64,000 bases of DNA from Thermoplasmatota archaeon (GTDB lineage: Archaea; Thermoplasmatota; SW-10-69-26; JACQPN01; JAJPHT01): the NCBI GenBank assembly GCA_035526585.1, contig DATLCC010000027.1, forward strand, positions 2,660 through 66,659, in the 5' to 3' direction. The notes below the pieces were generated by a model, which did not search any database, was not told the DNA's origin, and saw only the letters and a program-made list of their open reading frames with translations. Positions 4,248 to 64,000 of this stretch are shown here, piece by piece. Numbering within the stretch: the first letter of the stretch is position 1; the number at the start of each line of letters is the position of its first letter. The translations under genes were made by a program, and so were the position numbers.

Positions 4248-4919
4248 ATGTCCTTCTGCCCTCGCTGCGGCGCGCCCACCACGGCGTCCGAGACGTTCTG
4301 CACGGCCTGCGGCGAGAGCCTCGCGCCCGCGATCCTGCGGCCCAGCGCCCCTCCTTCCGGCTTCCCTTCCCCCGCCATGCCGCAGCCCGCCTCCCGGCCC
4401 GCAGGCCGGGTGCAGGACCCCATGCTCGTGCTCCTTCTCACGCTCGTGACGTTGGGGATCTACGGATTCTTCTATTGGCTTCGCGTCTCGCGCGAGGTCG
4501 ACGCCTACATCGGCAAGCCAGGGCACTCCCACAAGCTCATGCGGAACGGCTACCTCATCGCGCTCGTCGGCGGCCTCGTGCTCGTCGTCGGCCTCGTCTA
4601 CTTCAGCGTGGCGGCGCCCGATGCGCTGGATGGCGCCACGGGCGCGAACGCGGCGGCGCAGCTTGGAGGCCTGTTCCTCTTCATCGTGGCCGCCGCGATC
4701 GCGGCGGGGGTCGGCGGCATCATGACGCTCGTGGGACGCTGGCGCGTGTGGCAGGCGATCGAGGACGCGGAGCGCGCGCAAAACCACCCGAAGCCGTTGA
4801 GCCCGATCGTGCAGCTCCTGTTCACGATCATTCCCTACCTGAACATCGTCACGAGCTGGATCGCGCTCTATCGCAACCAGAAGCACCTGAACGGGCTGTG
4901 GACCGGGCGCACGGACTGA
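4248..4919 (+). CDS. zinc-ribbon plus DUF4234-like multi-pass membrane protein
   Basis: This is track ORF 4224..4919 (GTG), trimmed to the ATG at 4248. The N-terminal zinc ribbon is MSFCPRCGAPTTASETFCTACG, followed by a Pro-rich linker and then TM helices with the TLGIYGFFYW motif typical of DUF4234. Confidence 0.7.
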   Translation: MSFCPRCGAPTTASETFCTACGESLAPAILRPSAPPSGFPSPAMPQPASRPAGRVQDPMLVLLLTLVTLGIYGFFYWLRVSREVDAYIGKPGHSHKLMRNGYLIALVGGLVLVVGLVYFSVAAPDALDGATGANAAAQLGGLFLFIVAAAIAAGVGGIMTLVGRWRVWQAIEDAERAQNHPKPLSPIVQLLFTIIPYLNIVTSWIALYRNQKHLNGLWTGRTD

Positions 4920-9160: not shown

Positions 9161-10108
9161 ATGCGGCCGATCGTCGCTCTCGCCGCCCTCCTCCTGACCG
9201 GATGCATGGGGACCCCCGGATCCTCGGACGCGCCCACGCCCACGGTCGCGACCGCGACCGCTCCCCAGGCCTCCCCCTCCGGAACCCTTGCGTTCGCCTC
9301 GTATGCGATCGCGAGCGACGCGCGCTGGCCGGAGACGACCACGCTCGACGACCTCGACCGCTTGTACTCGCTGGAGCTGCGCGTCGAGATCCCATGGCCC
9401 GAAGCGTCCGACCCGACCACGGCCACGATGGCGCTCACCGACGCGGGCCACCCGCTCGCCACGCACGTCGAGCGCGGCTCCGCGAGCGTCGGGCCGGGAC
9501 CGGACGCCGCGCGCGACCACCTCACCTTCTGGATCCAAGCTGGCCTACACGCGTTCGACGGCTCCGACCTAGTCGGCGACAAGATCGTCGACTTCGCAGG
9601 ACGGAGCCTCGCCGTCCCCACGCTCGCGCACAATGCCACGCTCGTCGCGCACCTCGTCTGGGCCGACGACAACGGAACGCACGAGCGCAACGAGACGCTC
9701 CGGCTGCCCACGAGACCGCAAGGTCTCGCGCCCGACACGCGGGATCTCCTCGTCCTCACGGGACTTGGTGGATGGGTGGAAAGCGTCCCGTCGGACGATC
9801 GACATCAGCCGGCGAGCTGCAGGTACAGCACGAGCGGCAGCGCGAGCGCGGCGACATCCAGGCCCTTCTTCGTGAGCGAGTACTCCACGCGCACCGGCAT
9901 CTCGTCGAACATGCGCCGCTCCACGAGCCCCTGCTCCTCCAGGTCGCGCAGGCGCTGCGTGAGCGTGCGCCCGCTGATGCCGGAAAGCGAGGTCTTGAGC
10001 TCGCTGAAGCGCAACGTCCCGTGCTGCCCAAGGACGATCAGGATCTCGACCGTCCATTTGTTGAAGAAGACCTGCAGGTTCGCGACCACGCGATCCATCT
10101 CGCGCTGA
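9161..10108 (+). CDS. secreted lipoprotein, function unknown; 3' end uncertain
   Basis: This is track ORF 8774..10108 trimmed to the ATG at 9161. The N-terminus MRPIVALAALLLTGCMGTPGSSD is a signal peptide with a lipobox Cys. Sequence is plausible up to about 9800. The frame has no stop until 10108, so the last approximately 100 codons (S/R/C-rich) are antisense to the HxlR gene. See the corresponding finding. Confidence 0.5.
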   Translation: MRPIVALAALLLTGCMGTPGSSDAPTPTVATATAPQASPSGTLAFASYAIASDARWPETTTLDDLDRLYSLELRVEIPWPEASDPTTATMALTDAGHPLATHVERGSASVGPGPDAARDHLTFWIQAGLHAFDGSDLVGDKIVDFAGRSLAVPTLAHNATLVAHLVWADDNGTHERNETLRLPTRPQGLAPDTRDLLVLTGLGGWVESVPSDDRHQPASCRYSTSGSASAATSRPFFVSEYSTRTGISSNMRRSTSPCSSRSRRRCVSVRPLMPESEVLSSLKRNVPCCPRTIRISTVHLLKKTCRFATTRSISR

Positions 10109-10176
10109 AGGCCCGCCGACGCCGCGAGCCGTTCACGCCAGGGCTCCATCAGGCGCTCGCGGCTCTGGGCAGCCAT
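9805..10176 (-). CDS. HxlR-family winged-helix transcriptional regulator
   Basis: The HxlR signature is present: FFNKWTVEILIVLGQHGTLRFSELKTSLSGISGRTLTQRLRDLEEQGLVERRMFDEMPVRVEYSLTKKG. The track start at 10242 is TTG. I prefer the ATG at 10176 (124 aa), with the ATG at 10149 as an alternative, because a 10-bp inverted repeat occupies 10234-10243. Confidence 0.8.
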   Translation of the reverse strand: MAAQSRERLMEPWRERLAASAGLQREMDRVVANLQVFFNKWTVEILIVLGQHGTLRFSELKTSLSGISGRTLTQRLRDLEEQGLVERRMFDEMPVRVEYSLTKKGLDVAALALPLVLYLQLAG

Positions 10177-10233
10177 GGAGCGCAGGAGCGCCGCGACGAG
10201 CGCCGCCTCCGAACCTGCTCGCGGTGTCTTCGG

Positions 10234-10288
10234 AGATACCAAGGGGATCCGCCTACACCTCCCACGTTAAGACGTGTACTTGGTATCT
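10234..10288. promoter_or_regulatory. candidate operator in the divergent HxlR / acyl-CoA dehydrogenase promoter
   Basis: There is a perfect 10-bp inverted repeat, AGATACCAAG (10234-10243) and CTTGGTATCT (10279-10288). It flanks CACGT-TAAG-ACGTG (10263-10276), which contains a TTAAGA TATA-like core. GAACC-A-GGTTC follows at 10294-10304. Confidence 0.35.
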
Positions 10289-49153: not shown

Positions 49154-52100
49154 TTGGATCCCTCCTTCTTCTTGCGGCCAAGGACAGCCGCGATGCCCAC
49201 CGCCGCGACGAGCGCGAGCGCGAGGCCCGCGATGCCGCCCAGGGGCACCTTCTGCGCGAACGACGCGAGCCCGGACGCATCGCCGCCGGCGAGCGCGTCG
49301 CCGGAGACGAGGGGGCCGCGAAGGACGCTTCCGTCCTCGGGGAAGCGGGCCGTGTAGCGCCCGTCCGACGCTTCAAAGGCGTAGGTGTGTGGCGCGTCGC
49401 GCTTGTGCGGCGCGAGGCGGGTCTCGTAGGTGTACGCTGCGCCCGTCTTGGCGTCGCCGCTGACCAGGGTCATGTTCTGAGGGACTCCGTCGAGGATGAC
49501 GCGCACGTACGCGGGCGCCTTGCCGCCCGGGCTCGCGTAGGTGACTGCGTAGTGGAACGTCGTGGACACCGTGCCGATCGTCGGAGTGGCGGCTCCGACG
49601 GTGAGGCGGGGCACCGCGGTGGCGGATGCGCGCAGCACGCCGTCCGTGGGGCCTTCGTTGGCGCCGTAGTCGAGGGCCGCCACCTTGTAGGTGTACAGCT
49701 TCTCGTAGGGCAGGCCGGCGTCGTCGTAGCGCGTGCCGGTGACCTCCGCGACCATGCGGAAGACGACGGCGTCCTCGCTGCGGTAGACGCGGTACGCCGC
49801 GACGGCGACGTCGTCCGTCGCCGCGTTCCACGAGAGGCGGAGCGTGCCGTTCAGGAGGTCGAGGACCGAGAGGGGCCCGACCGTGGTCGGCGCCTTCGTG
49901 TCCTGCAGGGTCGCGAAGCTGCCGTGGAGCGGCACCTCGTTCCCCGCGAGGTCGGTGACCTTCAGGTCGTACTGGTAGCTGCGGCTCGGGAGGAGCCCTT
50001 CGAAGGCGAGGTCGACCGTCGGCGCCGCGACGATGCTGGAGACCGTGACGGCGGGAGACGCCGGCGCGGTCGCGGTGCCCGTGACGAGGATGGGCTCGTT
50101 GGCGGGGACCTTCACGACGACGCGCGTGTGCTTCGTCTCCGAGATCGTGGTCGATCCCACCGTGGGCGCCACGTTGTCCACGGGGATGCTCACGTCGATG
50201 TCCTTCTCGTTCCCGGCAAGGTCCACCGCGTGGACCTTGACGGTCTTCGTGGCGGCGGCCTCGGCGGACGACACGGAGAACGTGCCCTGCCACTCGTCCG
50301 CGTTCACGATCTTCACGAGGCGCACCGATCCGACGTCGGAGAGCGCGCTCGTGTCGGCGGTGACGATGCTCACGCCGCTGAGGTCGTGCACGGTGAGGTT
50401 GAGCGTCACGGTGCCGCCCTGCTTCGCGGCGCCGGTGCCCGGCGCGTAGCGCGTCGGGTTCACGGTGATGACGGGCGCGTCGCCGTCGATCGCGACCTTC
50501 CACGTCTCCTTCGCGACGTTGCCCGCGTTGTCGAGGATGCGCAGCTCGAAGGTGCGCATGCCGGCCTCGAGCGCGTCGGGGATGTCGTAGGAGAGGCGCA
50601 GCCGCGCGTCGGGGAGCGCGTCGATGGTGAGGTTCTTCGTGACGAGCTCGCCGTCCACGTAGAGCGCGGCGGGCACGCTCGGGAAGCCCGAGAGCGCGTC
50701 GCTCGTCTCCGCGAGGAGGCGCGGCGTCGTGTCGTTCGTCGCAAGAAGCGGCGAGGAGACGATGACCGCGGGCGGCGTGTTGTCGCTCGTGAAGGGACCG
50801 ATGACCGCGCTTGCGACGTCGTGCCCGGCCTCGGCCGTGAGGCGCAGCTCGTAGGTCGTGCCGTCGAGGAAGCGCGTGCTGTTCCAGCGCAGCTCGTGCG
50901 AGTCGCCCTGGCGCGTCGCGGTCGTGACGAACGTCCACGCGCTCGTCGTCGCGTTGCGCACCTCGAGCGTGTAGCTCACGAAGTCCGCGCTGTCGAGGAG
51001 ACCGCCGCGGAAGGCGACCTTCACGAGGCCGCTCACGTTGTCGCCGCGCGCGGGGAGCTGCGGCTGCAGGAAGAGCGCGGTGATGGTCGTCGCTTCCACG
51101 ATGTCGCTCTCCTTCGAGAAGCCGCCCGTGGACGCGGAGACCGCGCGCAGCGAGTAGCGCGTGGAGGGCTGGAGCCCTTCGACCTTGAGCGCGTGCTCGA
51201 CGCTCGCGTTCGTGTCGAGCGGCGTGCGTCCGTTGAGGGCGATGGCGCTCGTGCCGAACTTCGCCATCGCGCTCGTGGGCTCGGAGGTCTTCCAGTGCAG
51301 CACGAGGCTGTTGTGCGTGACGTTCGTGACGCGGAAGCTGCCGGGGACGAAGTCGAACGCCTTCGCGTTCACGGCGAGGGGGACGAGCACGGTCGTGACG
51401 TTGCCGGCGAGGTCGGGGACGCGCACCGTGATCGTGTACGCGGCGTCCGCGAGGTTCGGCTTGTCCACGAAGAACGTCGCCTCCTGATAGATGAGGCCGT
51501 TCACGCGCACGGGGCGCACCTTGAGCGCGCTCGCGTTCTTCGCGAACGCGGACGCATCGACGGTGATCCTGCCTTCGTCGACGCCGAAGGCGTCCTCGGC
51601 GGTGAGCCGGAGCTTGACCTGGTCGCCCGGCTTCACGGCGGTCTGGCCCGGCGGAAGGATGGGCGGGAGCACGTGCACCGCGGGGCTCGCGTGGTCGAGG
51701 ATCACGCGGCCGGCGGAGACGCTGATGCTGTTGCCGGCCTTGTCCTCCACGTCGAACTGGGCGAGCCAGATGCCTTCGGGGAAGACGCTCTTGTCCACGT
51801 TCTCGCGGCTCCATCCGCCGAAGGACCACATCGTGCCCTCCTGGCCGGCAGGGCAGGCGCCCGCGGGGGTCGCCGCGCGCGACGCCTTCGTCGACTCCTG
51901 CGTCGTGGGGTCGATGTGGTAGAGCTGGAGCGTGACGGTGCCGATGCCGGTCTCGAGGTCGCGCACGCAGATGCCGAACGCGATCGGCTGGCCCGCGCGC
52001 ACGAACGTGTAGTCGGAGCCCTGGAAGCTCGAGAGGAGGCCGCCGGTGAGGGCGAGACCCGAGAAGACCGGCTGCCCCTGGTCGACGACGAGGCGGGCGT

Positions 52101-55100
52101 AGCCGTGCTGGACGTCGGCGCCGCGCGAGAGCTTCGCGTAGAAGGCGGAGCGGACGGCGTCGAGGAGCGTCGCCTCGTTCGCCGTGCCCTCGACGTTGTG
52201 GGCCCGGTCGACGGCGACCGTGAGGAAGAGGTGCACCGGGTCGCCCGAGGAGGAGACCGTGCGCGAGGTGCGGGTCGCGGGGATCGCGCGCGCGAGCGCG
52301 GGCGCGAAGTTGTCCTCCACGATGGGGGCGGGGTCGCCGGTCGCGCCAAGCGCGCTCCATCCCGTCGCGAGGTCGCCTTCTTCGCCATGGCGGTAGAAGA
52401 CGTACACCTGCGACACGCCCGAACCGGGCGCGGGGACGTCCGACCCGCTCGCGGCCGAGAGGTCCACCGACGCCCATTCGACGGGGACGCCGCCGGCGCC
52501 CGCGAGCGAGCCCGAGCCGACGTAGACGGTCGCCGTGCTTCCGGGCGTGACGCTGCCCGTCGTGAGGAACGACGCGGGCGGCGTGCGGTCGATGAGGACG
52601 GAGTCGACGCGGCTCGTCGAGAGCCCCTGCGCGTCGGTCGCGGTGACGTTCGCGAGGAAGACGCCCTCGCGGGTGAGATCGTTGCGGGTCGTGTTGTGCT
52701 GCGTCCAGCGGTCGCTCGAGCCGGAGGCGGACCAGTTCGCGAGGGGGCGGTGGCCGATCGCGTTCCAGTAGGCCGTGTCGAGCTCGCCGCCGCCGCGGCG
52801 GGGCGAGCCGTCGACGTCGCCTTCCACGTACGAGGTGTCGCGCAGCGTCTCCTTGACCTCGCCCGTCGCGGGGTCGTCGAGCGTGACGGAGACCTGCGTG
52901 GACGGGGTGGCAGGCGTGCGGAACTCGATGCGCGCCTGGTAGTCGGGGTGCCCGCCCGACTTGTAGAAGAAGAACGAGCCGGGGAGCGAGCCGAGGCCGC
53001 CCACGAGGCTGTTGAGGTTCTGCCCGTTCGTGTTGCCGAAGTTGCGCAGGACCGTCGTGACGTTCTCGCGCACGTCCGTGCGGTTGAGGACGGGGACGCC
53101 CGTCCCGCGCGTCTCCTCGATGCCGGGGACGAGGTGGTCGCCGGTCGCGGGGTTCTCGGTGTCGTTCACCGCGTCCGCGGCCGCGTTGAAGGCGCCCGAG
53201 ATGCTGTCGCCGGGGCCGGGCTGCGCGTTGTCCGTGACGAGGCCGACCGTGACGGTGAGGCGCATGTCCTTGGGCACGACGATCGTGCTGCCGTCCGAGA
53301 CGATGCCCGCGGCCTGCACGGTCGCGTCGGGCTCGTTCGCGTCGAGGTAGAAGTCCGTGAAGTCGACGTTGTCGAGGTCGCCCGCGCCGCCGCTGCCGCC
53401 CTCGCCGCCCTCGTCCTTGCAGGGGATGAGGCCGCAGAGGTGGGGGATGCCGTCCGTGACGGGCGTGACGACGTCCGTGAACGCGGAGGCGACGTCGTGG
53501 AGGTTGCCGTTCACGTCGACGCAGACGTGCACCGGGCCCGTCGGGAGGGTCTGGTTCGGGATCAGCGCCTGCTGGCCGCCGGGCGCCGTGTTCGGGCGGA
53601 AGACCCCGCCGCGCTCGAGCACCTGCACGGGGTACCAGACGAGCCAGGCGGGAAGGTTCACGCCGGGGCCGTTCGCGATGGGCTGCGGCGACGCCTGGCA
53701 GGGCTTGAGCTGGCCGCTGCGGATGTCGCCGTTGTACGTCGCGCACGTGTCCGCGCCGCCCTGCGTGCAGACGGGGGCGGCGATGGAGTCGACGACGTTG
53801 AAGATCACGTTGCCGTGGACGTTGTCGTCCACCTGCTTCGCGGTCGTGCCGAGGCTGTCGATCACGAGCTGGCGCACGGGGCCAAAGAGCGACGCGATGC
53901 CGCCCACGTCGGGAAGCGGCACGCCGTCGGTGGCGGAGCGCGACTTCGTGAACGTGCCGCTCGCGAGGTACCAGTCCTTGCCGAAGGCGTCCTTCACGTT
54001 CGTCCCGTTCGCGTACTTGACGCCGACGAGGATCTGCGTGTTGAGCGGCGCGGTCGTGATGAGCGCCGTGCGGTTGGGGAGCGCGACGTGCACGCTCTGC
54101 TTGCTCGTGACGCGCAGGTCCGCGCCCAGCGGCTCGATGCGCGAGGCGAAGGGCTCGCCGTTGATGGTCTCGACCTTGAGCTTCGCGGGCGTGCCGAACG
54201 CGTCGCCGCCGGGGTTCGTGTCGCTCTCGGTGTTGGCCGCGTTGTCGAGGTAGAACGTGAGCGCGTTGCAGAGCTGGGGCTGGTCCTGGTCGATCGCGAG
54301 GCCCTCGCACGGGAAGCTGCGGTTCCACGCGGGGATGCGCCAGCCGTTCGCGGCCTCGAAGGGGTCCTCCTCCGCGTCGAAGGAGGCGCTCCAGTTGACG
54401 TAGAGCTGCTGCGCCTCGCCGTAGGCGTACGGGGAGAACGTCGCGTTCGCGATGCCGGTGTATTCGGGGGCGAGCTCGAGGCGCTTCACGACGGGCGCGT
54501 TGTTCACGACGAGCGTGCGCGTCGCGTTGCGCGTCACGGTCTCGTTGGCCGAGTTGCCCATCTCGTCGCCAAAGAGGAGGACGGAGCGGTCGGCGAGCTG
54601 CGCGCTGAAGGTCGGGAGCGCCTTCGCGAGCTTGACGCCGTCCGAGAAGTTGCCGAGGTCGACGACGGCGCTCCAGAGCGTGACGCCGCGCTGGACGCTC
54701 GTGACGTTCGTGGACGTCGCGACGCGCTCGCGGTCGAGGAAGAAGTCGACCGAGCGCACGTCGAGCGAGCGCGTGGCGTTCTCCACGTCGGCCGAGCCGT
54801 CGGTGGGGTCCCCACCGGCGAGCGTCGCGAGCTGCTTCGTGAGCGGCGCGAGCGTGCGGTTCTCCGCGCCAGTCGAGGTGTTGACGGTCGCGAGGAAGCA
54901 GACCTTGCCCGTCGCGAAGAAGGAGCGGCCCCGCGGCTCGATGATCTCGGAGGTGCAGCCCAGGCCGTCGACGTAGCGCGTGAAGTTGAGCGTCGTGCGC
55001 GTCGTCCCGTAGAGCGTCTGCGCGAGCGCGCCCGCGGTGACGTCGCGGATCGTGGACGCGAGCACGTAGTCCGCGCCAAGGCCCGTTCCGTTCTGCGTCC

Positions 55101-58100
55101 ACGCGACGTTGTTGCCGAACGCGGGCGCCATGTGGCCAGAGGGCTGGTTCACGCCGCGGCCCTGCTCGATGAAGCCGGGCGCGCCGTCCGCCGCCGCTCG
55201 CGGCGCGAAGTGCGAGACGTAGCGGTCGTCGCCGCCGAGGTCGAGGAAGAACGCGGTCGCGCCGCCGAAGCTGTTGCCGCCGGCCGCCTGCGCGCGCGGC
55301 ACCCAGCCGTAGGATTCGTTGTCCGCGTCGTAGATGTCGTTGCCTTCGACGTCGATGAAGATCGCGGCCGAGAACGATTCGGCGGCGCCCTGGACGGCGT
55401 GCGTGCCGACGTATTCGTCGCTGCCGCCCGCGTCGAGCAGCATGCCCAGCCCGCCGTACGTGGCGTAGCCCTGCGCGCGGTCCGCCGCGACGAGCTTGCT
55501 CTCGGAGTCTCCGTTGCCGAGCATGGCGAGGACGCCGACGCCCGCGAAGCCGGCGCCCTGCGCGAGGCTGGGCTTGAGGGCCGTCACGGGCGCGACGCCG
55601 TCGTAGCGCGCGGGGAGGCCGGTCGCAAGGCCGATGCCGGCCCAGCGCGCCATCTCGTCGGAGATGTCGCTGTTGCGGATGCCCGTGTAGTTGCCGTCGC
55701 GGTTGGCCGCGCCGACGGGGAACGTGAAGTTCTCGAGGGAGGAGGTCGCGGTCTGCGCGTAGCTCGCGCCCGCGTCGGCGAAGCCGATGTAGAGGCCGAG
55801 CTCGTCGCGCGGGTACTCGCACCCGCTCGCGCCCACGTAGCCGAAGCCGACGGAGTCGGCCCAGCAGTAGGCGAGGTCGTAGATGCTGGGCGGGATCTCC
55901 GTCTGGATGAGGTCCTTGCGGATCTCGTAGACGACGTGCCCGTCCTCGCTCGCGTGGCACTTCACGTCCACCGCGCGCGGCGTGAGGCTCGCGTCGAGGC
56001 CGTCCAGCTGCATCGTGGTGAGGCCCGCCTTGGGGGCGCCGAGGTCGGTGAAGACGCACGCGTGATCCTCGCCCTGGTAGGCGATCTGCAGCTCGTCGAT
56101 GCCGCTGTGGCCCGCGGCCGTGTCGTACTGGCGGCCGAAGTGGCCGATGTCGAGGTCGACGAAGAGCATGTCGCGCGCGCGATCCTTCTCGGTCTGAGAG
56201 AGCGTCGTGCCTTCGAGCGCGAGGTAGAGGGAACGGTTGTCGTTCGCGATGCGCAGCGTCCAGTCGGACGTGTAGCGCGCGTCGCGCTGCGAGCCAAGCT
56301 CGATCGGGATGGGCTCGCCGAAGAAGTCCCACTCGGGGCCGATCGCGCCGTCGATCGCGATCGCGTCGCGGGAGCGGTCGAGCCACTGGCTGCCAAAGCT
56401 CGGGATCGCCTGCTCGAGCGCGCGGTACTCGTCGCGGCCGCCAAGGTCGGCGAGGACGCCGATGCCGAAGTAGCCGACGCCCTGCGAGAGGCCGTGGGCG
56501 ACGTCGTAGGTGGACGCGCCCGTGCCGGCGTCGAGGAGGAACGTCACGGGGAAGAGGTTGAGCGGCTGCGAAACGGCCGAGAACGGCGTCTGCGTGCCGG
56601 CGGCCGCCGCGCCGTTCTGCGGCGGGCCCTGGGCGAGGTAGTCGCGGATGAGGCCGGCCGCGCTGTAGTCGTACGAGTTGTTGCCGCCGAGGTCCACGAC
56701 GAAGGCGTACTCGTCGGAGAAGGTCGTGTGGCCGGAGTCGCCGATGGCGAGGCGCGCGGTGGGCATGTCGACCAGGAAGCCGGCGTGATCGATCGCGGAG
56801 CCGCCGCCCACGAGGCCGGCGAGGAACGCGCCGGTCGGGTCGTTGGTCTCCGTGTCGATGTGGACGCCGACGTCCGCGTAGAGGCGCGGGTTCGTCTGCC
56901 CGTTCGTGGCCGTCTCGGCGCGCGTGAGGGTCGTGTTCTGGTTGCGCGCGAGGGAGACGGAGCCCGGCTGGAGGTAGACGTCGCTGCCCGAGAGATCCAC
57001 GAGGATCGCGGCGGCGGGGCGCGGCGCGTTCGCGGGCGCAACGTCGCGCGTGGCCACGGTCTGGGAGAGCGTCCAGCCGAAGCTCCACTTGTCGTTCGCG
57101 AAGTAGCGGTCGCGGCCCTTCACGTCGAGGAGCGCGCCCACGCCACCGATGCCGCCGACGCCGTGCGTCTGCGTCGCGCTGGGGCGCGCAGCGTACGTCT
57201 CGTTCCCCTCCGTGGACGCGAGGAGGCCGAGCGCGTAAGGCGCGTTCTTCGGCGTGTCCGCGCCGCTGCCGCGGTTCATCGCGCTCGCGAAGCCGCGACC
57301 GAAGCCTTGGCTGTGGTTGCCGGCGACGAAGGTGTCGTCGCCTGCGCCCAGGTCGAGGAGGAGGCCGACGTCGCGGCGCGCGCTGCCAAGCGGCGTGTCG
57401 CTCGTCGCGTCGTTCGTGACGTTGCCGCCCTGGGGGAAGCCCGCGGTCTCGCGGTCGTCGGGGATGCCGGCGAGGTTGGCGCCCTGGCTCAGGTCGCCCG
57501 CAGCGTAGCTGTCGGTGCCCGCGAGGTCGATGAGCGCGCCGCCGAGCGCGCCCTGGCTGCCGGCGCCGGCGACGTACGCATCCGCGCCGGCGGTGTCGAC
57601 GAGGACGCCGTAGAGGGAGCCCTGCGCGTAGGAGCGCGAGGCGTTCACATACTCGTCCGCGTCGCTCGCGCCCGCCGCGAGGGCGCTGCCCGTCGCGCTC
57701 GTGAGGTCGACGTTCACGACGAGGCTCGGAGCGAGGAACGTGTCGTTGAGCTGCGGCGTGAAGTTGCCCTTCTCGTCCGGGATCGAGCGCGTGACGACGG
57801 GGAGCGCGCCGCCGGCGCTGTTCACCAGGTGGTCGCGGCCGCCCAGGTCGATGATGACGAAGTAGTCGTCCTGGTACGTCGTCTCGACGACGTCGCCGAT
57901 CGCGAGGATCCCCGCGGGGACCTGGAAGGAGAATCGGCTCTCGCTGAAGTCGCCGCCGTTCTGCAGCGTGCCGGCGCCAGGGACGCTGCCCGTCCCTTCG
58001 CCAGGCGCTGCCGTGTCGTAGGCCACGTACGCGCAGCGCTCGATCGTGCGCTCCTGGGGGCGCGCGGGGCGCGTCGTGTTCGGGTCGGTCTGCCCGAAGA

Positions 58101-61100
58101 TGGGGTTCTGGTCGCCCACCACGCGCTCGCCGGGGAAGAAGCCCAGCGGCGCGGAGCCGTTCACCATGAACTCGCCCGTGCAGGCGTAGTCGATCGAGCC
58201 GGCGTCCTGGAGCGGGAGGCGCAGGTCGACGATCTTGTCGCTTCCGCGCATCGACGTGTCGTTCTCGTCCGCCGGGTTCGAGGCGAGCGGATCCACGCGG
58301 CGACCGACGCCCGCGCCGTCGAGGCCGTTCTCCTCGATGACGGTCCAGACGGCCTGCGGGATGACGATCGCAGGGCCCGACGGGAAGCCCGCGGGGTAGG
58401 ACGTGGGAGCGTCCGGGTCGGTGGAGAGCGCTCGCTCGACGTAGTTCGGATAGCCGTCGCCGTCCGTGTCGTTCGCGATCGCCTCCGCGCGCGCGGTGGG
58501 CTGCGTGAGCGGGCTGCTGCGCTGATCCGCAGGGTCCGTGCCCGCGAGGAGCTCGACGAAGTCGGGGAACGCGTCGCGGTCGGGATCCGCGTTGCTGACC
58601 ACGACCTCCGTGTCGACGCCGAGGCCCGCGGAGAGCGCGCCGGGGCCGTCGAGCCAGACGCGGTTGTCCGCGCGCTCCGTGAGCGTCGTGAGGTTGCCGC
58701 CGGGAACGATCTCGAGGTTCACGAGCGGCGCGCCGTTCGGGGCGTGCTCGTTCTCGTAGGCGTCCTTGCCTCCGAGGTCCACGAAGACGCCGCCGAGGCC
58801 GTACCCCTGGCCCGACATCGCGGCGTACTGGTCGTCCGCGCCGTCGTCGAGCAGGATGCCGACGCCCAGCGTGAACGTGTCCGACGCGGCGCCCTGCGAG
58901 AGCTGCTGCGCATGGTAGATGTCGCGGCTGCCGGAAAGGTCCGCAAGAAGCGCGAGGCCGAGGCGGGAGTAGCCCTGGCTCATGGAGGGCGCGTCGTAGC
59001 TGTCGCCGCCGTCGGCGTCGACGAGCACCGCGACGCCGCCCACGGGCGCGGACGCCTGCGACGGGTGGCCGCGCGCCGAGCCGAGGGCCAGCTCGAGCGG
59101 GGAGAAGATGTCGTAGAACGACGTCGGGTCGTTGTAGCGGTCCGCGCCGCCCATGTCGAGGTGGAGCGAAACGGGGAGCGACGCGTTCGTGTGCACCATG
59201 GCGACGGGCATGTTGTACACGTCGTTGCCGTCGAGGTCGAGCGAGACGGTGGGCGCGCCGTAGCGCATGACGGTCTCGTAGTGGCACGTCGCCGACGCGC
59301 GCGCGGGCTCGACATGGGCCGGGACGGAGCCGCTGCTTCCGGTCGAGAAGCCACCGCCGCCGATGGTGGGGCCGGTGCTGGGCTGCGGCGGCTGCGCAGC
59401 GATCTGGTTCACGGGGCACACGAGGCGGCGCGCCTCCTCGGGCGTGTGCGTCGTCGAATCCGCGCCGGTGATCACGAGGAGCTCGAGGCTCGCCTCGCCG
59501 CCGGTCGGGTAGTGGCGGATGCCGTCGTGCACGTCGCCGGGGTCCTGGTAGCCGTAGACCATGCACTGCGCGTCGGTGCACGTGTAGACGCCGCCAGAGT
59601 GCGCATCGTCAGCATACGAAGGCATCTGGCCGGCCGCGTTCGACTCGGCGGGCGTGAAGCCGAAGCTGTCGACGGGCCAGCGCAGGCGGAGGAGGACGTC
59701 CTCGCCGCACTGGTCCACGATGCCGGGGACGATCTGGCACGCGGGCGTGTCGCCGTCGTCGATCTGGGCGCGCGCGCCTCCGAACGGGAGGAGGTGGCGC
59801 AGGAAGGAGAGGACGCCCGTCTCGACGGGCGTCGCGGACGCGGAGGCGCTCGCGTAGGCGCCCGCGCCCTGGAGGATCGCGCGCGCCTGCTCGCCCGCGA
59901 GCGTCGCGACGATGCCGGCCTGCGCGAGCGCGTCCTCGTCGACGCGCGCGGCGAGCGCGGTCGCGAGCGCGAGCTCCTCGAGCTCTGCGGCGGTGAGATC
60001 CTCGCCGTAGAGCGCGTCGAAGCCCTGCGCGCGGCGCAGCGTCTCGATCTCGCTCGCGGAAAGGTGCGCGAACGCCTGCTGCTGGAGGCGCGCGCTCTGC
60101 GCCGCGCCGCTCATGAGGACAGCGGCGGCGTCGCGCGTCGCGGGGTCGAGGCGGGCGGCGCCCTCGTCGGCGGCCGCGCGGTGCTCGGGGAGCACCGTGT
60201 AGCCCGCGAGCGTCAGCATGTCGACGTACGCGTCCGTGAAGGAGAGGACCTTGAGCTTCGGGACGGCGGGGTCGGTGCCGGTGATGATATCACCCGCGCG
60301 GACGGCGTCCACGAGCGCGCCGTGCGTCGAGGCGAGAAGCGCCGCGTGGTGCGCGGCCCAGCCGACGCGCGCGCCCGGCGTCCATTCGCCCACGCGCAGC
60401 GCATCGGGCGCGGCGCGCCAGTACAGGCCGTACTTCTCGAGCGTCGGGAGCGCGGCGGAGGTCGCGACGAGCACGTTCGCGAGCGCGGCGGACTGCGACG
60501 TGGGCGTGAGGCCCGAGGGGCTCGCGGCGGTGATGGCCTGCGCCTCGGCCATGACGAGGCGCGCGATCGCGGCCTGCAGGTCGAGCGGGAGCGCATGCGC
60601 GCGCGCGAGCACGTCGGCCTGCGCGGCGGGCGAGGGCGCCTGGCCGCTCGCGGCGAGGAGCGCGGCGAGCGCATCCTCGAACGAGGGCGCGACGCCCGCG
60701 TCCGCGAGAGGGACGTTCGCGGCGAGCGAGACGAGCTTCGCGGCGAGGAGGACCTTCTGCGCGTCGCTCGCCTTGTCGTCGGAGGCGACGATGAGAGAGA
60801 GGATGGCCTTCGTGGTCTCGTCCAGCGACGCGGTGTCGAGCCCTTCGAGCTCGGCGCGGGCCGCGTGGTCGGCGAGGGAGCCGCGCGTCGCCTCGACGGC
60901 CTCGAGCACGAGGAGCGTCGCCTCGATGCTCTTGCGCATGTCCACGAGCGACGCGAGGATCGCCATGCGGCGCGTCTCCGGCGTGCTGATCCCCTGCGCG
61001 AGGTCGCTCGCGACGTCCGGGTGCGAGTAGACCCACGCGAGCTCGTCGGGCGTGAGGAGCGCCAGCGCCTCGCGCTGCATCTGCGTCGCCGTGATGGTCG

Positions 61101-61638
61101 AAAGGAGCAGGAGCGCGACGTCGCGCTGCACGTCGAGGGGCAGCGCGTCCGCGCGCGCAAGCTGCGCCGCGAGCTCCGCGGGCGGCACGACGGAGCCCGT
61201 CGCCGCGACCCACGCGAGGATGGCCGCGCGCAGCGGCGCCTCGGGCGCGATCGCGTCGACGGGAAGAGGAGGCACCGCGAGGTCGCGGTAGCCCATGAGG
61301 TCCGCGGCGCCGAGGACCTGGCCGAGAAGGACCGAGCTGCTGGCATCAGCTCGGACCGGGGAGGCAAGCTCGTCGGCGGAGGGACGGGAGGAGGATCCGT
61401 CCGTTCCATCGGGAGCACGTGATCCGGAGGAGGGGGGCGACGTCGAGCCGCCTGGAACGACGAAGGGAAGGTCCGAGCCTCCATCGGCGGCGCTGCCGCC
61501 GTCGGAGGCGTGGCGAGCCGCCGCTGCCGCCCGCTCGTCGGCGGCCTCGAGGGCCACCTGCGCCAGGGGGAACGCGGAGACTACCAGGGTAAGAACAAGA
61601 GTCCCAGCTAGGACCTTCAGTATCGTCGCTCGCTTCAC
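49150..61638 (-). CDS. giant envelope protein A (4162 aa): signal peptide, Ala/Leu-rich helical domain, long D-x-G-G-x-D-x-Y repeat (solenoid-like) region with an inserted CBM9/DOMON-like domain, Ig-like/FN3 array, C-terminal TM anchor
   Basis: The GTG start at 61638 is preceded by GGAGG. The signal is MKRATILKVLAGTLVLTLVVSAFPLAQ. The repeat region is described under the findings. FN3-like modules are present (e.g. LRLSWNAATDDVAVAAYRVYRSEDAVVFRMVAEVTGTRYDDAGLPYEKLYTYKVAALD and FRVTNVTHNSLVLHWKTSEPTSAMAKFG). Ig-like modules are bounded by D-x-T/A-P-P/A. The anchor is GIAGLALALVAAVGIAAVLGRKKKEGSK. Confidence 0.88.
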   Translation of the reverse strand: MKRATILKVLAGTLVLTLVVSAFPLAQVALEAADERAAAAARHASDGGSAADGGSDLPFVVPGGSTSPPSSGSRAPDGTDGSSSRPSADELASPVRADASSSVLLGQVLGAADLMGYRDLAVPPLPVDAIAPEAPLRAAILAWVAATGSVVPPAELAAQLARADALPLDVQRDVALLLLSTITATQMQREALALLTPDELAWVYSHPDVASDLAQGISTPETRRMAILASLVDMRKSIEATLLVLEAVEATRGSLADHAARAELEGLDTASLDETTKAILSLIVASDDKASDAQKVLLAAKLVSLAANVPLADAGVAPSFEDALAALLAASGQAPSPAAQADVLARAHALPLDLQAAIARLVMAEAQAITAASPSGLTPTSQSAALANVLVATSAALPTLEKYGLYWRAAPDALRVGEWTPGARVGWAAHHAALLASTHGALVDAVRAGDIITGTDPAVPKLKVLSFTDAYVDMLTLAGYTVLPEHRAAADEGAARLDPATRDAAAVLMSGAAQSARLQQQAFAHLSASEIETLRRAQGFDALYGEDLTAAELEELALATALAARVDEDALAQAGIVATLAGEQARAILQGAGAYASASASATPVETGVLSFLRHLLPFGGARAQIDDGDTPACQIVPGIVDQCGEDVLLRLRWPVDSFGFTPAESNAAGQMPSYADDAHSGGVYTCTDAQCMVYGYQDPGDVHDGIRHYPTGGEASLELLVITGADSTTHTPEEARRLVCPVNQIAAQPPQPSTGPTIGGGGFSTGSSGSVPAHVEPARASATCHYETVMRYGAPTVSLDLDGNDVYNMPVAMVHTNASLPVSLHLDMGGADRYNDPTSFYDIFSPLELALGSARGHPSQASAPVGGVAVLVDADGGDSYDAPSMSQGYSRLGLALLADLSGSRDIYHAQQLSQGAASDTFTLGVGILLDDGADDQYAAMSGQGYGLGGVFVDLGGKDAYENEHAPNGAPLVNLEIVPGGNLTTLTERADNRVWLDGPGALSAGLGVDTEVVVSNADPDRDAFPDFVELLAGTDPADQRSSPLTQPTARAEAIANDTDGDGYPNYVERALSTDPDAPTSYPAGFPSGPAIVIPQAVWTVIEENGLDGAGVGRRVDPLASNPADENDTSMRGSDKIVDLRLPLQDAGSIDYACTGEFMVNGSAPLGFFPGERVVGDQNPIFGQTDPNTTRPARPQERTIERCAYVAYDTAAPGEGTGSVPGAGTLQNGGDFSESRFSFQVPAGILAIGDVVETTYQDDYFVIIDLGGRDHLVNSAGGALPVVTRSIPDEKGNFTPQLNDTFLAPSLVVNVDLTSATGSALAAGASDADEYVNASRSYAQGSLYGVLVDTAGADAYVAGAGSQGALGGALIDLAGTDSYAAGDLSQGANLAGIPDDRETAGFPQGGNVTNDATSDTPLGSARRDVGLLLDLGAGDDTFVAGNHSQGFGRGFASAMNRGSGADTPKNAPYALGLLASTEGNETYAARPSATQTHGVGGIGGVGALLDVKGRDRYFANDKWSFGWTLSQTVATRDVAPANAPRPAAAILVDLSGSDVYLQPGSVSLARNQNTTLTRAETATNGQTNPRLYADVGVHIDTETNDPTGAFLAGLVGGGSAIDHAGFLVDMPTARLAIGDSGHTTFSDEYAFVVDLGGNNSYDYSAAGLIRDYLAQGPPQNGAAAAGTQTPFSAVSQPLNLFPVTFLLDAGTGASTYDVAHGLSQGVGYFGIGVLADLGGRDEYRALEQAIPSFGSQWLDRSRDAIAIDGAIGPEWDFFGEPIPIELGSQRDARYTSDWTLRIANDNRSLYLALEGTTLSQTEKDRARDMLFVDLDIGHFGRQYDTAAGHSGIDELQIAYQGEDHACVFTDLGAPKAGLTTMQLDGLDASLTPRAVDVKCHASEDGHVVYEIRKDLIQTEIPPSIYDLAYCWADSVGFGYVGASGCEYPRDELGLYIGFADAGASYAQTATSSLENFTFPVGAANRDGNYTGIRNSDISDEMARWAGIGLATGLPARYDGVAPVTALKPSLAQGAGFAGVGVLAMLGNGDSESKLVAADRAQGYATYGGLGMLLDAGGSDEYVGTHAVQGAAESFSAAIFIDVEGNDIYDADNESYGWVPRAQAAGGNSFGGATAFFLDLGGDDRYVSHFAPRAAADGAPGFIEQGRGVNQPSGHMAPAFGNNVAWTQNGTGLGADYVLASTIRDVTAGALAQTLYGTTRTTLNFTRYVDGLGCTSEIIEPRGRSFFATGKVCFLATVNTSTGAENRTLAPLTKQLATLAGGDPTDGSADVENATRSLDVRSVDFFLDRERVATSTNVTSVQRGVTLWSAVVDLGNFSDGVKLAKALPTFSAQLADRSVLLFGDEMGNSANETVTRNATRTLVVNNAPVVKRLELAPEYTGIANATFSPYAYGEAQQLYVNWSASFDAEEDPFEAANGWRIPAWNRSFPCEGLAIDQDQPQLCNALTFYLDNAANTESDTNPGGDAFGTPAKLKVETINGEPFASRIEPLGADLRVTSKQSVHVALPNRTALITTAPLNTQILVGVKYANGTNVKDAFGKDWYLASGTFTKSRSATDGVPLPDVGGIASLFGPVRQLVIDSLGTTAKQVDDNVHGNVIFNVVDSIAAPVCTQGGADTCATYNGDIRSGQLKPCQASPQPIANGPGVNLPAWLVWYPVQVLERGGVFRPNTAPGGQQALIPNQTLPTGPVHVCVDVNGNLHDVASAFTDVVTPVTDGIPHLCGLIPCKDEGGEGGSGGAGDLDNVDFTDFYLDANEPDATVQAAGIVSDGSTIVVPKDMRLTVTVGLVTDNAQPGPGDSISGAFNAAADAVNDTENPATGDHLVPGIEETRGTGVPVLNRTDVRENVTTVLRNFGNTNGQNLNSLVGGLGSLPGSFFFYKSGGHPDYQARIEFRTPATPSTQVSVTLDDPATGEVKETLRDTSYVEGDVDGSPRRGGGELDTAYWNAIGHRPLANWSASGSSDRWTQHNTTRNDLTREGVFLANVTATDAQGLSTSRVDSVLIDRTPPASFLTTGSVTPGSTATVYVGSGSLAGAGGVPVEWASVDLSAASGSDVPAPGSGVSQVYVFYRHGEEGDLATGWSALGATGDPAPIVEDNFAPALARAIPATRTSRTVSSSGDPVHLFLTVAVDRAHNVEGTANEATLLDAVRSAFYAKLSRGADVQHGYARLVVDQGQPVFSGLALTGGLLSSFQGSDYTFVRAGQPIAFGICVRDLETGIGTVTLQLYHIDPTTQESTKASRAATPAGACPAGQEGTMWSFGGWSRENVDKSVFPEGIWLAQFDVEDKAGNSISVSAGRVILDHASPAVHVLPPILPPGQTAVKPGDQVKLRLTAEDAFGVDEGRITVDASAFAKNASALKVRPVRVNGLIYQEATFFVDKPNLADAAYTITVRVPDLAGNVTTVLVPLAVNAKAFDFVPGSFRVTNVTHNSLVLHWKTSEPTSAMAKFGTSAIALNGRTPLDTNASVEHALKVEGLQPSTRYSLRAVSASTGGFSKESDIVEATTITALFLQPQLPARGDNVSGLVKVAFRGGLLDSADFVSYTLEVRNATTSAWTFVTTATRQGDSHELRWNSTRFLDGTTYELRLTAEAGHDVASAVIGPFTSDNTPPAVIVSSPLLATNDTTPRLLAETSDALSGFPSVPAALYVDGELVTKNLTIDALPDARLRLSYDIPDALEAGMRTFELRILDNAGNVAKETWKVAIDGDAPVITVNPTRYAPGTGAAKQGGTVTLNLTVHDLSGVSIVTADTSALSDVGSVRLVKIVNADEWQGTFSVSSAEAAATKTVKVHAVDLAGNEKDIDVSIPVDNVAPTVGSTTISETKHTRVVVKVPANEPILVTGTATAPASPAVTVSSIVAAPTVDLAFEGLLPSRSYQYDLKVTDLAGNEVPLHGSFATLQDTKAPTTVGPLSVLDLLNGTLRLSWNAATDDVAVAAYRVYRSEDAVVFRMVAEVTGTRYDDAGLPYEKLYTYKVAALDYGANEGPTDGVLRASATAVPRLTVGAATPTIGTVSTTFHYAVTYASPGGKAPAYVRVILDGVPQNMTLVSGDAKTGAAYTYETRLAPHKRDAPHTYAFEASDGRYTARFPEDGSVLRGPLVSGDALAGGDASGLASFAQKVPLGGIAGLALALVAAVGIAAVLGRKKKEGSK

Positions 61639-61646
61639 GTGAACCG

Positions 61647-61651
61647 CCTCC
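61647..61651 (-). promoter_or_regulatory. Shine-Dalgarno-like GGAGG upstream of the operon's first gene
   Basis: The minus strand reads TGAGGAGGCGGTTCAC-GTG, placing GGAGG 8 nt upstream of the GTG at 61638. This contrasts with the apparently leaderless genes elsewhere in the window. Confidence 0.4.
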
Positions 61652-61863
61652 TCAGGCGTGCTCCAAAGTGGCCCGCTGCCAGGCGAGCCTCCCAGGGTAG
61701 CCGGGTAGTCCCCGGGCCCCCTCTTGAGTTTTGCTACACACGGTTTGACCGTCTCCGCCGGCGTGGCAAAGGGGCGTTCCGCCTGTTGAACGGGCGTTCT
61801 AGACGTGAGATGGTCTCACGAGACTCTGTGCGCTTCGGGAGGAGCGACGTTGCGCCCTGGCCT

Positions 61864-61883
61864 GCCACGTGGCGCCATGTGGC
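61864..61883. repeat. palindrome copy 1: GCCACGTGGCGCCATGTGGC (one mismatch from perfect)
   Basis: This was read directly from the sequence. The flanks extend the dyad to CCTGCCAC...GTGGCAGG (61861-61886). Confidence 0.9.
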
Positions 61884-61949
61884 AGGACGGGGCGGCGCGG
61901 GACACGTGTGAGCATTTGGTTACGCGAGCTGCGCGCCGCCGCCCGCGAT

Positions 61950-61969
61950 GCCACATGGCGCCATGTGGC
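61950..61969. repeat. palindrome copy 2: GCCACATGGCGCCATGTGGC (perfect 20-bp dyad)
   Basis: This was read directly from the sequence and is identical to its own reverse complement. Confidence 0.95.
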
Positions 61970-62021
61970 CGGGCGGGCGCCCGGCGCTGCCCGCCACAGC
62001 GGCGCACACGGCCCCCCGGCT

Positions 62022-62041
62022 GCCACATGGCGCCATGTGGC
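62022..62041. repeat. palindrome copy 3: GCCACATGGCGCCATGTGGC (perfect; dyad extends to 24 bp, CTGCCACATGGCGCCATGTGGCAG, 62020-62043)
   Basis: This was read directly from the sequence and is identical to its own reverse complement. Confidence 0.95.
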
Positions 62042-62280
62042 AGGACGCCCAACGCGTGCGCCCTCGCCCCCGCCCTCGCCCCGGCCCCGTCCCCCCGTCG
62101 TGATATCAGCCCGTCGCACGTCGGCGGTTGCGCAGGAGCGCGCATCGTCGCGGCCCGCTTGCGTCGGTATCTCCTCGTCGTGACACGCGATAGGCTTAAC
62201 TCCCGTACGCCCGCTGCACGCCTCAGCGAGGAGTGCTAGAGGCTAGGCCCTCCCCGCGCGCAATAGGGAGTGCTTCCAAC

Positions 62281-64000
62281 ATGAGTACCATCAAGATCAC
62301 GCTGACCATGGCGATCGCTGCGGTCCTGGCCACCCCCGCCGGGATCGCGTCGTGGAACGCCTTCGGCGACAGCGAGCCCAGCACGCCGTACGACGACGCG
62401 ACCTTCATGTGGCAGGATGGCCCGGTCGCGTCGAAGGACCGCGTCTACTTCAACGGCTTCGTGAACGAAGCGGCCGGCATCGTGAGCGTCGGGGCGAACC
62501 CGAACGTCGCGCTCCTCGCCACGCACAACGAAGCGGTCGGCATCGAGACGTACGTCGCGATCCTCGGCAACTGGGTCGACTGCAACGGCGACGGCTACGT
62601 CGGCCTGCAGGAGAGCGCGCTTCGCGAGTACGACGCGGCGCTCCTGCTCGACACGAGCATCTGCCCGCCCTCGTCTGGTGACATCAACGCCTGGAACGGC
62701 GAGCACAACTACAACGGCTGGGTCACCGAGCTCGTGCCCGTGGGCACGAACGGCGGCCAGCCCTCGGCGAGCCCCGGCTCGACGCCGGACTACGAGGACG
62801 ACGGCCTCGACCAGCGCATCTGGCGCGATGAGACGGCGCGCGTCTGGGGCGACTACGGCAAGCCCGACGACGGCGCGGCGGAAGGCAGCGGCGGCACGTG
62901 CCCCATCCGTCCCTTCCCCCGCGGGACGGCGCAGAGCACCGGCGGCATCCTCGACTACGCGGACTGCAGCACCGGGCTCCTTGCGCGCTGGAACTCCATC
63001 TGGGCTGACGAGCTCACCGTGCAGGACCAGACGGTCCCCGGCCCCGGCGACCCGCTGGGCCTGCGCTTTGCGGACGAGGACGACGGCCACTCCGGCGTGC
63101 TCGGCAGCGTCGAGACGCTGGGCACCGAGGACTCGGGCCGCGCCGCGGTCGTCCTCACGGACTGCACGGCGGAGCCCGTGTTCGACTCCAGCGCCACCTT
63201 CAACGCGACGAACGAGCAGCTCGACCTCGTCGGCGACGAGGACCAGGCGTTCATCGACGAGAACACGCGCACGAAGATCTACCCCGCGGCTCCCGCGACG
63301 CGCGACACGACGGACCCGACGGTCCCCGGGCAGTTCAACCAGACGAACGAAGAGTTCGGCGGCGACTGCGACACGACGAACGACGCCGGCCACGACACGT
63401 ACGGCACCGTCGAAGGCGACTTCGAGGGCACGAGCGCGACGGACAAGCGCCAGTCGGACTTCAACATGGAGTTCGAGGACAACGGCGTCCTCGGCTGCAC
63501 GCCCCGCGGCCAGGTCACGGACTGCGGCTTCTTCGGCGTTGACTCGACGCCCTACCCGGACCAGCTCCACCCCGGATCGGCGGGAGCAGGCTTCACGAAC
63601 GAGGTCGTCTTCCACGACTGGTTCGCGCGCGTCGCCCTCGTGAAGGGCCCGCCCGCGACGACCCGTGGCTCCGTGCTCGGCACCGTGAGCGGCGAGAACC
63701 CGATCGGCCTCGCGGACGCGCCGTGGATCACGTTCTACGCGTACGTCGGCTCGAACACGACCTCCACGCACGGCCTCAAGACGCCGGGCGGCAGCGGCGT
63801 GTACGGCAAGCCCCAGTGCGGCTCGTTCACGAGCGAGACCCACAACGGCTGGAACTGCGACGCGAGCCTGTGGAACCTGAACGGCGACGGCACGGCGCAG
63901 CCCCAGACGCAGGGCGGCTTCGCGGCTCCGGGCGCGCTCTACAACCTGCGCGACGCGGACTGCTTCGACGGCAACAACGGCCTCGGTGTCCCGCTGGGCG
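62281..64000 (+). CDS. secreted acidic Cys-rich protein, N-terminal 573 codons (runs off window end)
   Basis: This ORF is absent from the track because it has no stop in the window. From the ATG at 62281 it reads MSTIKITLTMAIAAVLATPAGIASWNAFGDSEPSTPYDDATFMWQDGPVASKDRVYFNGFVNEAAGIVSVGANPN...VDCNGDGYVG.... It has a signal peptide, strongly G/C-ending codons and balanced D/N/T/G-rich composition. The opposite-strand track ORF 62236..63843 is R/A/V-rich shadow. Confidence 0.72.
   Translation, partial: MSTIKITLTMAIAAVLATPAGIASWNAFGDSEPSTPYDDATFMWQDGPVASKDRVYFNGFVNEAAGIVSVGANPNVALLATHNEAVGIETYVAILGNWVDCNGDGYVGLQESALREYDAALLLDTSICPPSSGDINAWNGEHNYNGWVTELVPVGTNGGQPSASPGSTPDYEDDGLDQRIWRDETARVWGDYGKPDDGAAEGSGGTCPIRPFPRGTAQSTGGILDYADCSTGLLARWNSIWADELTVQDQTVPGPGDPLGLRFADEDDGHSGVLGSVETLGTEDSGRAAVVLTDCTAEPVFDSSATFNATNEQLDLVGDEDQAFIDENTRTKIYPAAPATRDTTDPTVPGQFNQTNEEFGGDCDTTNDAGHDTYGTVEGDFEGTSATDKRQSDFNMEFEDNGVLGCTPRGQVTDCGFFGVDSTPYPDQLHPGSAGAGFTNEVVFHDWFARVALVKGPPATTRGSVLGTVSGENPIGLADAPWITFYAYVGSNTTSTHGLKTPGGSGVYGKPQCGSFTSETHNGWNCDASLWNLNGDGTAQPQTQGGFAAPGALYNLRDADCFDGNNGLGVPLG

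Follow-up and report, generated by a model that had tools for sequence, protein, structure and literature searches.

Three near-identical palindromic dyads in the divergent region upstream of a giant surface-protein operon of a Thermoplasmatota archaeon: a possible binding-site cluster for a dimeric protein

Three near-identical dyad-symmetric sequences lie within 180 bp of one another in the intergenic region that separates a giant surface-protein operon from a divergent secreted-protein gene, in the 64,000-nucleotide stretch of a Thermoplasmatota genome analysed here (the window). The triplet is real and non-random. As far as we searched it is specific to this locus, and it is constrained in sequence in the core only. 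We tentatively read the three dyads as a lineage-specific cluster of binding sites for a dimeric DNA-binding protein, a reading that we favour while rating it somewhat short of probable.

The first dyad (61864-61883, GCCACGTGGCGCCATGTGGC) carries an A-to-G substitution at 61869, which produces a G.T opposition with position 61878; with this one mismatch included, its symmetry reaches 26 bp (61861-61886, CCTGCCAC...GTGGCAGG). The second (61950-61969) is a perfect 20-bp palindrome, and the third (62020-62043, CTGCCACATGGCGCCATGTGGCAG) is a perfect palindrome of 24 bp built around a 20-mer core at 62022-62041. No strand is assigned to any of them. The 20-mer common to all three is GCCACATGGCGCCATGTGGC, which in pattern form becomes TGCCACRTGGCGCCAYGTGGCA. 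The initial annotation of this DNA had already described three such dyads, with the substitution in the first copy, the extension of the third to 24 bp and distances of 86 and 72 bp between neighbours, and the sequence confirms each of these points. Measured from start to start, neighbouring copies are 86 bp (dyads 1 to 2) and 72 bp (dyads 2 to 3) apart and the outer two 158 bp, which makes 8.19, 6.86 and 15.05 helical turns. A T followed by the 20-mer forms a 21-nt core that is the same in all three copies bar one base, and outside it identity drops to background within a few nucleotides. The exception among the flanks is the right one, which is semi-conserved (MGGRCG). Beside both dyad 3 and dyad 1 it reads GGACG, an asymmetric sequence, and an asymmetric 28-nt unit (CTGCCACRTGGCGCCATGTGGCAGGACG) is common to these two copies; because this unit and flank are shared, the copies must all lie in the same orientation. 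In addition, 32-nt arms at copies 1 and 3 are inverted relative to each other, with 88% complementarity, and enclose 120 nt. The odd ATWRHVA-type peptides that had been attributed to the palindromes do come from them: ATWRHVA, PHGAMW and HMAPCG, found in small ORFs on both strands, are the palindrome translated in different frames.

A lone 20-bp perfect palindrome had been called highly improbable even in GC-rich DNA, and that part of the argument did not hold, as a perfect palindrome of at least 20 bp appeared in 164 of 400 (41%) first-order Markov simulations of the 64-kb window, and one with at least six A/T positions in 48 of the 400. The improbability of three copies did hold: none of 100 dinucleotide shuffles contained any match to GCCACATGGCGCCATGTGGC at up to three mismatches. 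Since lone palindromes of this length are frequent in 70%-GC simulations, only the triple recurrence within 180 bp is non-random. Across the window, palindromes of at least 12 bp are as numerous as chance predicts (59 observed, 57.6 expected); the two perfect dyads are the longest, and they are the sole long ones of mixed composition. Those of at least 16 bp are also at chance level (6 observed, 5.4 expected). Elsewhere, an 18-bp palindrome, CCGCCGCGATCGCGGCGG, and its 16-bp core flank orc1/cdc6 (4948-6189) at 4690-4707 and 6360-6375, both inside coding ORFs, and GCGATCGC is marginally enriched (19 observed, 11 expected). Restriction-site bias was also considered and rejected, CATG and GGCGCC not being avoided (observed/expected 1.56 and 1.17).

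We found no further copy of GCCACATGGCGCCATGTGGC at up to three mismatches in the 64-kb window, and a 12-nt half-site probe gave one stray match there, at 55124, inside the giant gene. Beyond the window, the pattern GCCACRTGGCGCCAYGTGGC was scanned in GTDB representatives, JGI metagenome contigs and IMG/VR, which returned 12, 14 and 0 loci respectively. Each of these 26 loci holds a single site, they are spread over unrelated phyla, and no genome or contig has more than one copy. As relatives of the dyads they were set aside: 22 of the 26 have the form (GCCACGTGGC)x2 in place of the CATG one, all lack homology to the window, and the one exact match (L017) lies within a 524-aa ORF. The dyad-bearing segment shows no similarity to known plasmids and phages; in the literature searched, three 12-13-nt sub-strings of the motif were not found and a 10-mer occurred only in PCR primers. 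No known repeat family has the dyad core. The earlier proposal that a dispersed motif would speak against operators is answered in part, for the motif is locus-specific within 64 kb and multi-copy in no public genome searched, while the window itself has few intergenic regions. Confined as it is to one intergenic region in 64 kb, the motif looks more like a locus-specific site than a generic repeat. Two further identities were rejected. A CRISPR array does not fit periods of 86 and 72, differing flanks at copy 2, a loop-less palindrome and scanned ORFs without cas domains; nor does a replication origin of the ORB kind fit a locus 56 kb from orc1/cdc6, where positions 61001-63000 have a GC content of 0.70-0.72 and hold no AT-rich stretch longer than 13 nt.

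The window has a GC content of about 0.70 throughout and is archaeal, with Orc1/Cdc6 encoded at 4948-6189; relatives of the plus-strand gene beside the dyads are annotated as Candidatus Thermoplasmatota MAGs. To the left of the dyads, the first gene on the minus strand (49150-61638) encodes a secreted protein of 4162 aa that combines a signal peptide, Fn3, Big_13 and TSP3 domains and a C-terminal membrane anchor; it begins with GTG at 61638, preceded by a GGAGG Shine-Dalgarno, and has no in-frame start farther upstream. The translationally coupled operon that it opens spans ~44 kb (17781-61638) and encodes, besides this protein, a 4081-aa CARDB protein, a 1423-aa protein, a 2255-aa DUF4129 protein, DUF4350, a MoxR AAA+ ATPase, DUF58 and a 1254-aa protein. 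It brings together giant secreted Ig-like/CARDB proteins, two of them longer than 4000 aa, with a MoxR/DUF58/DUF4350/DUF4129 module. To the right, the divergent plus-strand gene (62281-64000, 32 nt past the window end) starts with ATG and encodes P0001, a 583-aa product with a signal peptide and many invariant cysteines. P0001 had no match in Pfam or NCBIfam, its AlphaFold model (moderate, pTM 0.68) had no fold neighbour in the PDB, and no relative above 44% identity was present in 5.8 billion proteins. Its family, an orphan one made up of secreted, cysteine-rich proteins of ~520-590 aa, occurs only in Ca. Thermoplasmatota MAGs, where relatives carry tandem arrays of 2-8 paralogues (L027, L028, L032-L034, L039, L040). 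The only transcription factor gene in the window is of the HxlR/MarR type (9805-10266), 51 kb from the dyads, and the scanned ORFs of the window include no transposase, RAYT or recombinase.

The intergenic region between the minus-strand start at 61638 and the plus-strand gene at 62281 covers 642 bp (61639-62280), as had been stated. It contains three strong AT-rich patches and no more, at 61724-61736, 61914-61922 and 62101-62108. The first falls in a non-coding block (61639-61752, minus strand) that is ~86-88% identical to its counterpart at a related locus, L033, and that excludes the dyads; the block also holds an invariant 25-mer, GTGTGTAGCAAAACTCAAGAGGGGG, at 61741-61717 (minus sense), and a 5' leader with the GGAGG Shine-Dalgarno. 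It is probably the core promoter of the operon, with BRE/TATA at the 25-mer, plus its 5' leader, and the patch at 61724-61736 is the likely operon TATA. The second patch (GCATTTGGTTAC, no strand assigned), 44.5 and 41.5 nt from the centres of dyads 1 and 2, is a possible TATA-like element, one not conserved in L033. The third, an AT-rich 8-bp palindrome (TGATATCA, again without strand), could be the TATA element instead; it lies 73 nt rightward of the dyad 3 centre. For the plus-strand gene, the putative TATA-like box is GATAGGCTTAACTCC (62189-62203, plus strand), with the element GATAGGCTTAAC at 62189-62200. Paralogous genes at L027 are preceded, at a distance of 25-90 nt, by ATA-N3-4-TTAAY boxes that it matches. 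The array genes of relatives have GGAGG and, for the most part 45-90 nt before the start, a TATA-like box of the form TATATG, TTTATC or ATA-N3-4-TTAAY. A sigma-70 promoter scan of the region came back empty and is not applicable to an archaeal host.

Taking these inferred promoters as they stand, the conserved stretch 61717-61750 is at least 110 nt away from the dyads and the box at 62189-62200 ~150 nt away, so that all three dyads would sit in a ~450-bp spacer between divergent core promoters and outside both transcription units. The centre of dyad 2 (61959.5) is the exact midpoint of the start codons at 61638 and 62281, and the inferred TATA elements are near-symmetric about it, at 229.5 and 235.5 nt. 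On its right, dyad 3 is adjoined by a C-rich tract (62059-62097) with a 12-nt tandem repeat (CGCCCTCGCCCC, 2.4 copies), whose minus strand has six G-runs and is G-quadruplex-prone.

A single orthologous operon start was found for comparison, L033 (the same place as L032, NCBI GCA_035687045.1); a second was absent from the P0018, P0019, P0008 and P0020 contigs. On its minus strand L033 encodes the N-terminus of a giant protein that is 58% identical over 354 aa and has a near-identical signal peptide, followed by a 608-bp divergent spacer and then a paralogue array. The only significant match between the two loci joins window 61592-61750 to L033 1016-1175 (86% identity, E = 4e-46). Within it fall the ~115 nt that precede the start codon, together with the invariant GTGTGTAGCAAAACTCAAGAGGGGG; beyond this block the two spacers are at background similarity. 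The L033 spacer holds no copy of the dyad at up to five mismatches and no strong dyads of its own. Two apparent resemblances were discarded: a look-alike, GCCACGCTGGCGCGGTGGC, at the same offset as dyad 2, which 31% of null windows equal in score, and residual homology in the distal spacer, where shared 8-10-mers reach p ~0.1 against shuffles and 0.05 against pieces of real sequence. TTCTAGACGT and GCTAGAGG do occur in both spacers in the same order, at different distances, in a setting where k-mer sharing overall is not significantly enriched. The dyads thus appear to be specific to the lineage of the window, as they are absent from the L033 spacer, and the conservation upstream of orthologous operons that had been proposed for true operators is not seen in this one genome, at 58% protein identity. 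Turnover of binding sites is common at such evolutionary distances, and the absence is for that reason only weak evidence against operators.

Two other features were noticed in these spacers. The ~115 nt of the conserved block (61639-61752; L033 1063-1175) are 86-88% identical while the proteins are only 58% so, and the hairpins predicted in its leader, among them one with the GGAGG Shine-Dalgarno, show two base-pair changes that are compensatory; judged from these two sequences, it may be a conserved structured 5' leader. The tetranucleotide CTAG is strongly under-represented across the window (11 observed, ~65 expected), yet four of its 11 sites lie in or beside this intergenic region (61608, 61799, 62236 and 62243), and L033 has it at 1032, 1463 and 1509.

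Were the dyads operators, one sequence-specific, dyad-symmetric protein, a dimer or a dimer of dimers, would be expected to bind all three sites with high affinity, each 20-24-bp site taking one dimer through the half-site TGCCACATGGC. The 158 bp between sites 1 and 3 amount to 15.05 turns, and site 2 departs from that phase by ~0.2 turn at most. Since the sites lie near one helical phase, bound dimers could share a side of the helix and might interact by looping or wrapping, and it is this interaction that would govern how active the giant surface-protein operon, the secreted-paralogue gene, or both are. Here we infer the binding of a protein, the promoter positions and the transcriptional effect alike from the DNA.

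Several observations are consistent with such an arrangement. The combination of a near-identical core with flanks at background suggests constraint on the sequence and not merely on pairing, and the potential for larger hairpins around the cores is weak. In an operator array one would expect repeated symmetric sites of 14-26 bp; there are three here of 20-24 bp, placed in the divergent control region of two secreted-protein units. Other observations count against it. We found neither a regulator gene nearby nor further sites in the 64 kb, and a small element that inserted independently at each site would leave just as sharp a boundary between core and flank. Archaeal regulators mostly work at BRE/TATA/TSS or directly beside them, and distances of ~110-150 nt between the inferred promoters and the outer dyads are unusual for archaeal repressors. 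The suggestion in the initial annotation that the dyads are operators therefore fares unevenly: it is the best single explanation for repeated, locus-specific dyads of 20-24 bp in a divergent region, but the sites are not conserved and lie far from the inferred promoters.

Among known systems, lac O1/O2/O3, gal OE/OI and deo O1/O2/O3 are bacterial multi-operator looping systems. The dyads resemble them in that several palindromic operators, tens to hundreds of base pairs apart and roughly in helical phase, are served by one oligomeric repressor. They differ in that the bacterial systems have known repressors, sites that are conserved in relatives and at least one operator overlapping the core promoter; the present host, moreover, is an archaeon with TATA/BRE promoters. 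An archaeal parallel may be drawn with Ss-LrpB, where a control region holds three similar palindromic boxes that take one dimer each, with wrapping of the DNA (PMC1802622). The likeness lies in three copies of one dyad-symmetric box and, in the mechanism proposed here, in one dimer per box with cooperative contacts. The Ss-LrpB boxes, however, are 15 bp long, degenerate and A+T-rich at the centre, and are closely and regularly spaced in the promoter of the regulator's own gene, whereas the present dyads are 20-24 bp, G+C-rich with a GGCGCC centre, near-identical and 86 and 72 bp apart, with no adjacent regulator gene and with predicted binding. If they are operators, they would offer a handle on the control of a ~44-kb operon of 4000-aa surface proteins and of orphan secreted paralogues in an uncultured soil Thermoplasmatota. 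The regulator could then be sought by DNA-affinity capture or DAP-seq with the 22-nt site as ready bait, and the absence of this site at L033 would point to rapid rewiring of a control region around a conserved core promoter.

It is also conceivable, though in our view unlikely, that the dyads are a small palindromic element (REP, MITE or hairpin) or a locally duplicated ~28-nt unit that landed or was copied three times over in a spacer under little constraint, without a regulatory role of its own. They are missing from the L033 spacer, whose distal part is unalignable and apparently unconstrained, and they combine the same cores with unrelated flanks across a sharp border. The direct orientation of the copies, evident from CTGCCACRTGGCGCCATGTGGCAGGACG in copies 1 and 3, is what duplication or oriented insertion gives, and the 32-nt inverted arms of these copies around their 120-nt interior are MITE-like. 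In being short, clustered, intergenic palindromes that are absent from the orthologous site of a relative and sharply bordered, the dyads do look like REP/BIME or MITE sequences. REPs and MITEs, however, number tens to hundreds of dispersed copies, and REPs are imperfect hairpins, usually at gene 3' ends, of which perfect loop-less palindromes are atypical. The present dyads are three copies, perfect and loop-less, in one divergent 5' region, and the many dispersed copies of such a family were not found, there being only this one locus in 64 kb. Against an element speak also the lack of any further copy or half-site cluster in the 64 kb (which has few intergenic regions), of a family with this core in the genome and metagenome collections, of a transposase, RAYT or recombinase among the scanned ORFs, and of a convincing target-site duplication around 61861-62044. 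Should the dyads be a local repeat and nothing else, the finding would have little wider consequence.

A function at the level of RNA seems to us improbable. The dyads would here act as hairpins, or as a helix of copy 1 with copy 3 enclosing a hairpin of copy 2, in a long 5' leader or non-coding RNA, and would control stability, processing or translation. Compared with shuffles, the segment 61840-62070 does fold far better on either strand (z -6.1 and -4.9), copy 1 being paired with copy 3 and copy 2 forming a hairpin, but z-scores of this kind follow automatically from repeated palindromes. The substitution in copy 1 would be a G.U wobble in plus-strand RNA and a C.A mismatch in minus-strand RNA, and the folding energy of this copy is -36.1 kcal/mol in the former and -27.4 kcal/mol in the latter. 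Selection on structure alone would permit compensatory changes, however, and the cores are identical in sequence. The RNA reading calls for a distal promoter, and the sole candidate is the unconserved patch at 61914-22. With that patch as promoter, dyads 1 and 2 would lie ~10-28 nt downstream of divergent starts, and the first array gene of L033, which has no TATA-like box within 130 nt, hints at long leaders; the best-supported promoters nevertheless leave all dyads upstream of both transcription units. Nor are the dyads conserved in L033, and no Rfam match reached its gathering score in the window, where only sub-threshold miRNA-hairpin noise (E<=1) was returned. Extended 40-bp hairpins around the cores were considered and dropped, as shuffles of the flanks only gave weak and inconsistent values (z -0.3 to -2.9).

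Were site-specific recombination at work, the dyads would be crossover sites at which a recombinase inverts or excises the 66-nt and 52-nt segments between them, with phase variation of both surface units as the outcome, and we regard this as very unlikely. Bacterial invertible promoters with inverted repeats cluster beside surface-structure genes (PMC11892184, PMC11602134), and the present locus resembles them in that inverted repeats bracket a short promoter-like patch between genes for surface or secreted proteins. Any pair of copies can be read as direct and as inverted repeats alike, the sole central AT-rich TATA-like patch falls between dyads 1 and 2, and secreted or surface proteins are encoded on both sides. 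The differences weigh more heavily with us: the sites are fully symmetric, the central GGCGCC included, which gives no directionality and allows deletion; segments of 52-66 nt are much shorter than typical invertons; and no recombinase gene was found among the scanned ORFs of the window. The particular form of this idea, in which inversion or excision of 61884-61949 (66 nt, with the TATA-like patch) would turn transcription from the giant operon to the secreted-paralogue array or back, and so provide programmed phase variation from fully palindromic sites in Thermoplasmatota, we hold to be a shade more improbable again. Chance or an assembly artefact we consider to have next to no likelihood, for although single long palindromes are frequent in GC-rich DNA of this kind, the same 20-mer three times is expected zero times in shuffles, and an assembly duplication is at odds with copies whose flanks differ and whose spacing is irregular.

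The paralogue family next to the spacer gave rise to some further observations. Degraded paralogues were considered as a source of the dyads and rejected, because a tblastn search of the family against the spacer gave only scattered, non-colinear weak matches. Within the plus-strand gene, CATGTGGCAGGATGG (62406-62421) agrees at 14 of 15 nt with the right half of dyad 1 and its flank (CATGTGGCAGGACGG); it encodes MWQDG, of which MW is conserved across the P0001 family. With no colinear pseudogene remnant in the spacer by tblastn, this likeness is probably a coincidence. In one of the related arrays (L039), an 826-nt gap at 2924-3749 reads like the C-terminal part of the family (...YYGENPCP...) and is probably a decayed or mis-called paralogue.
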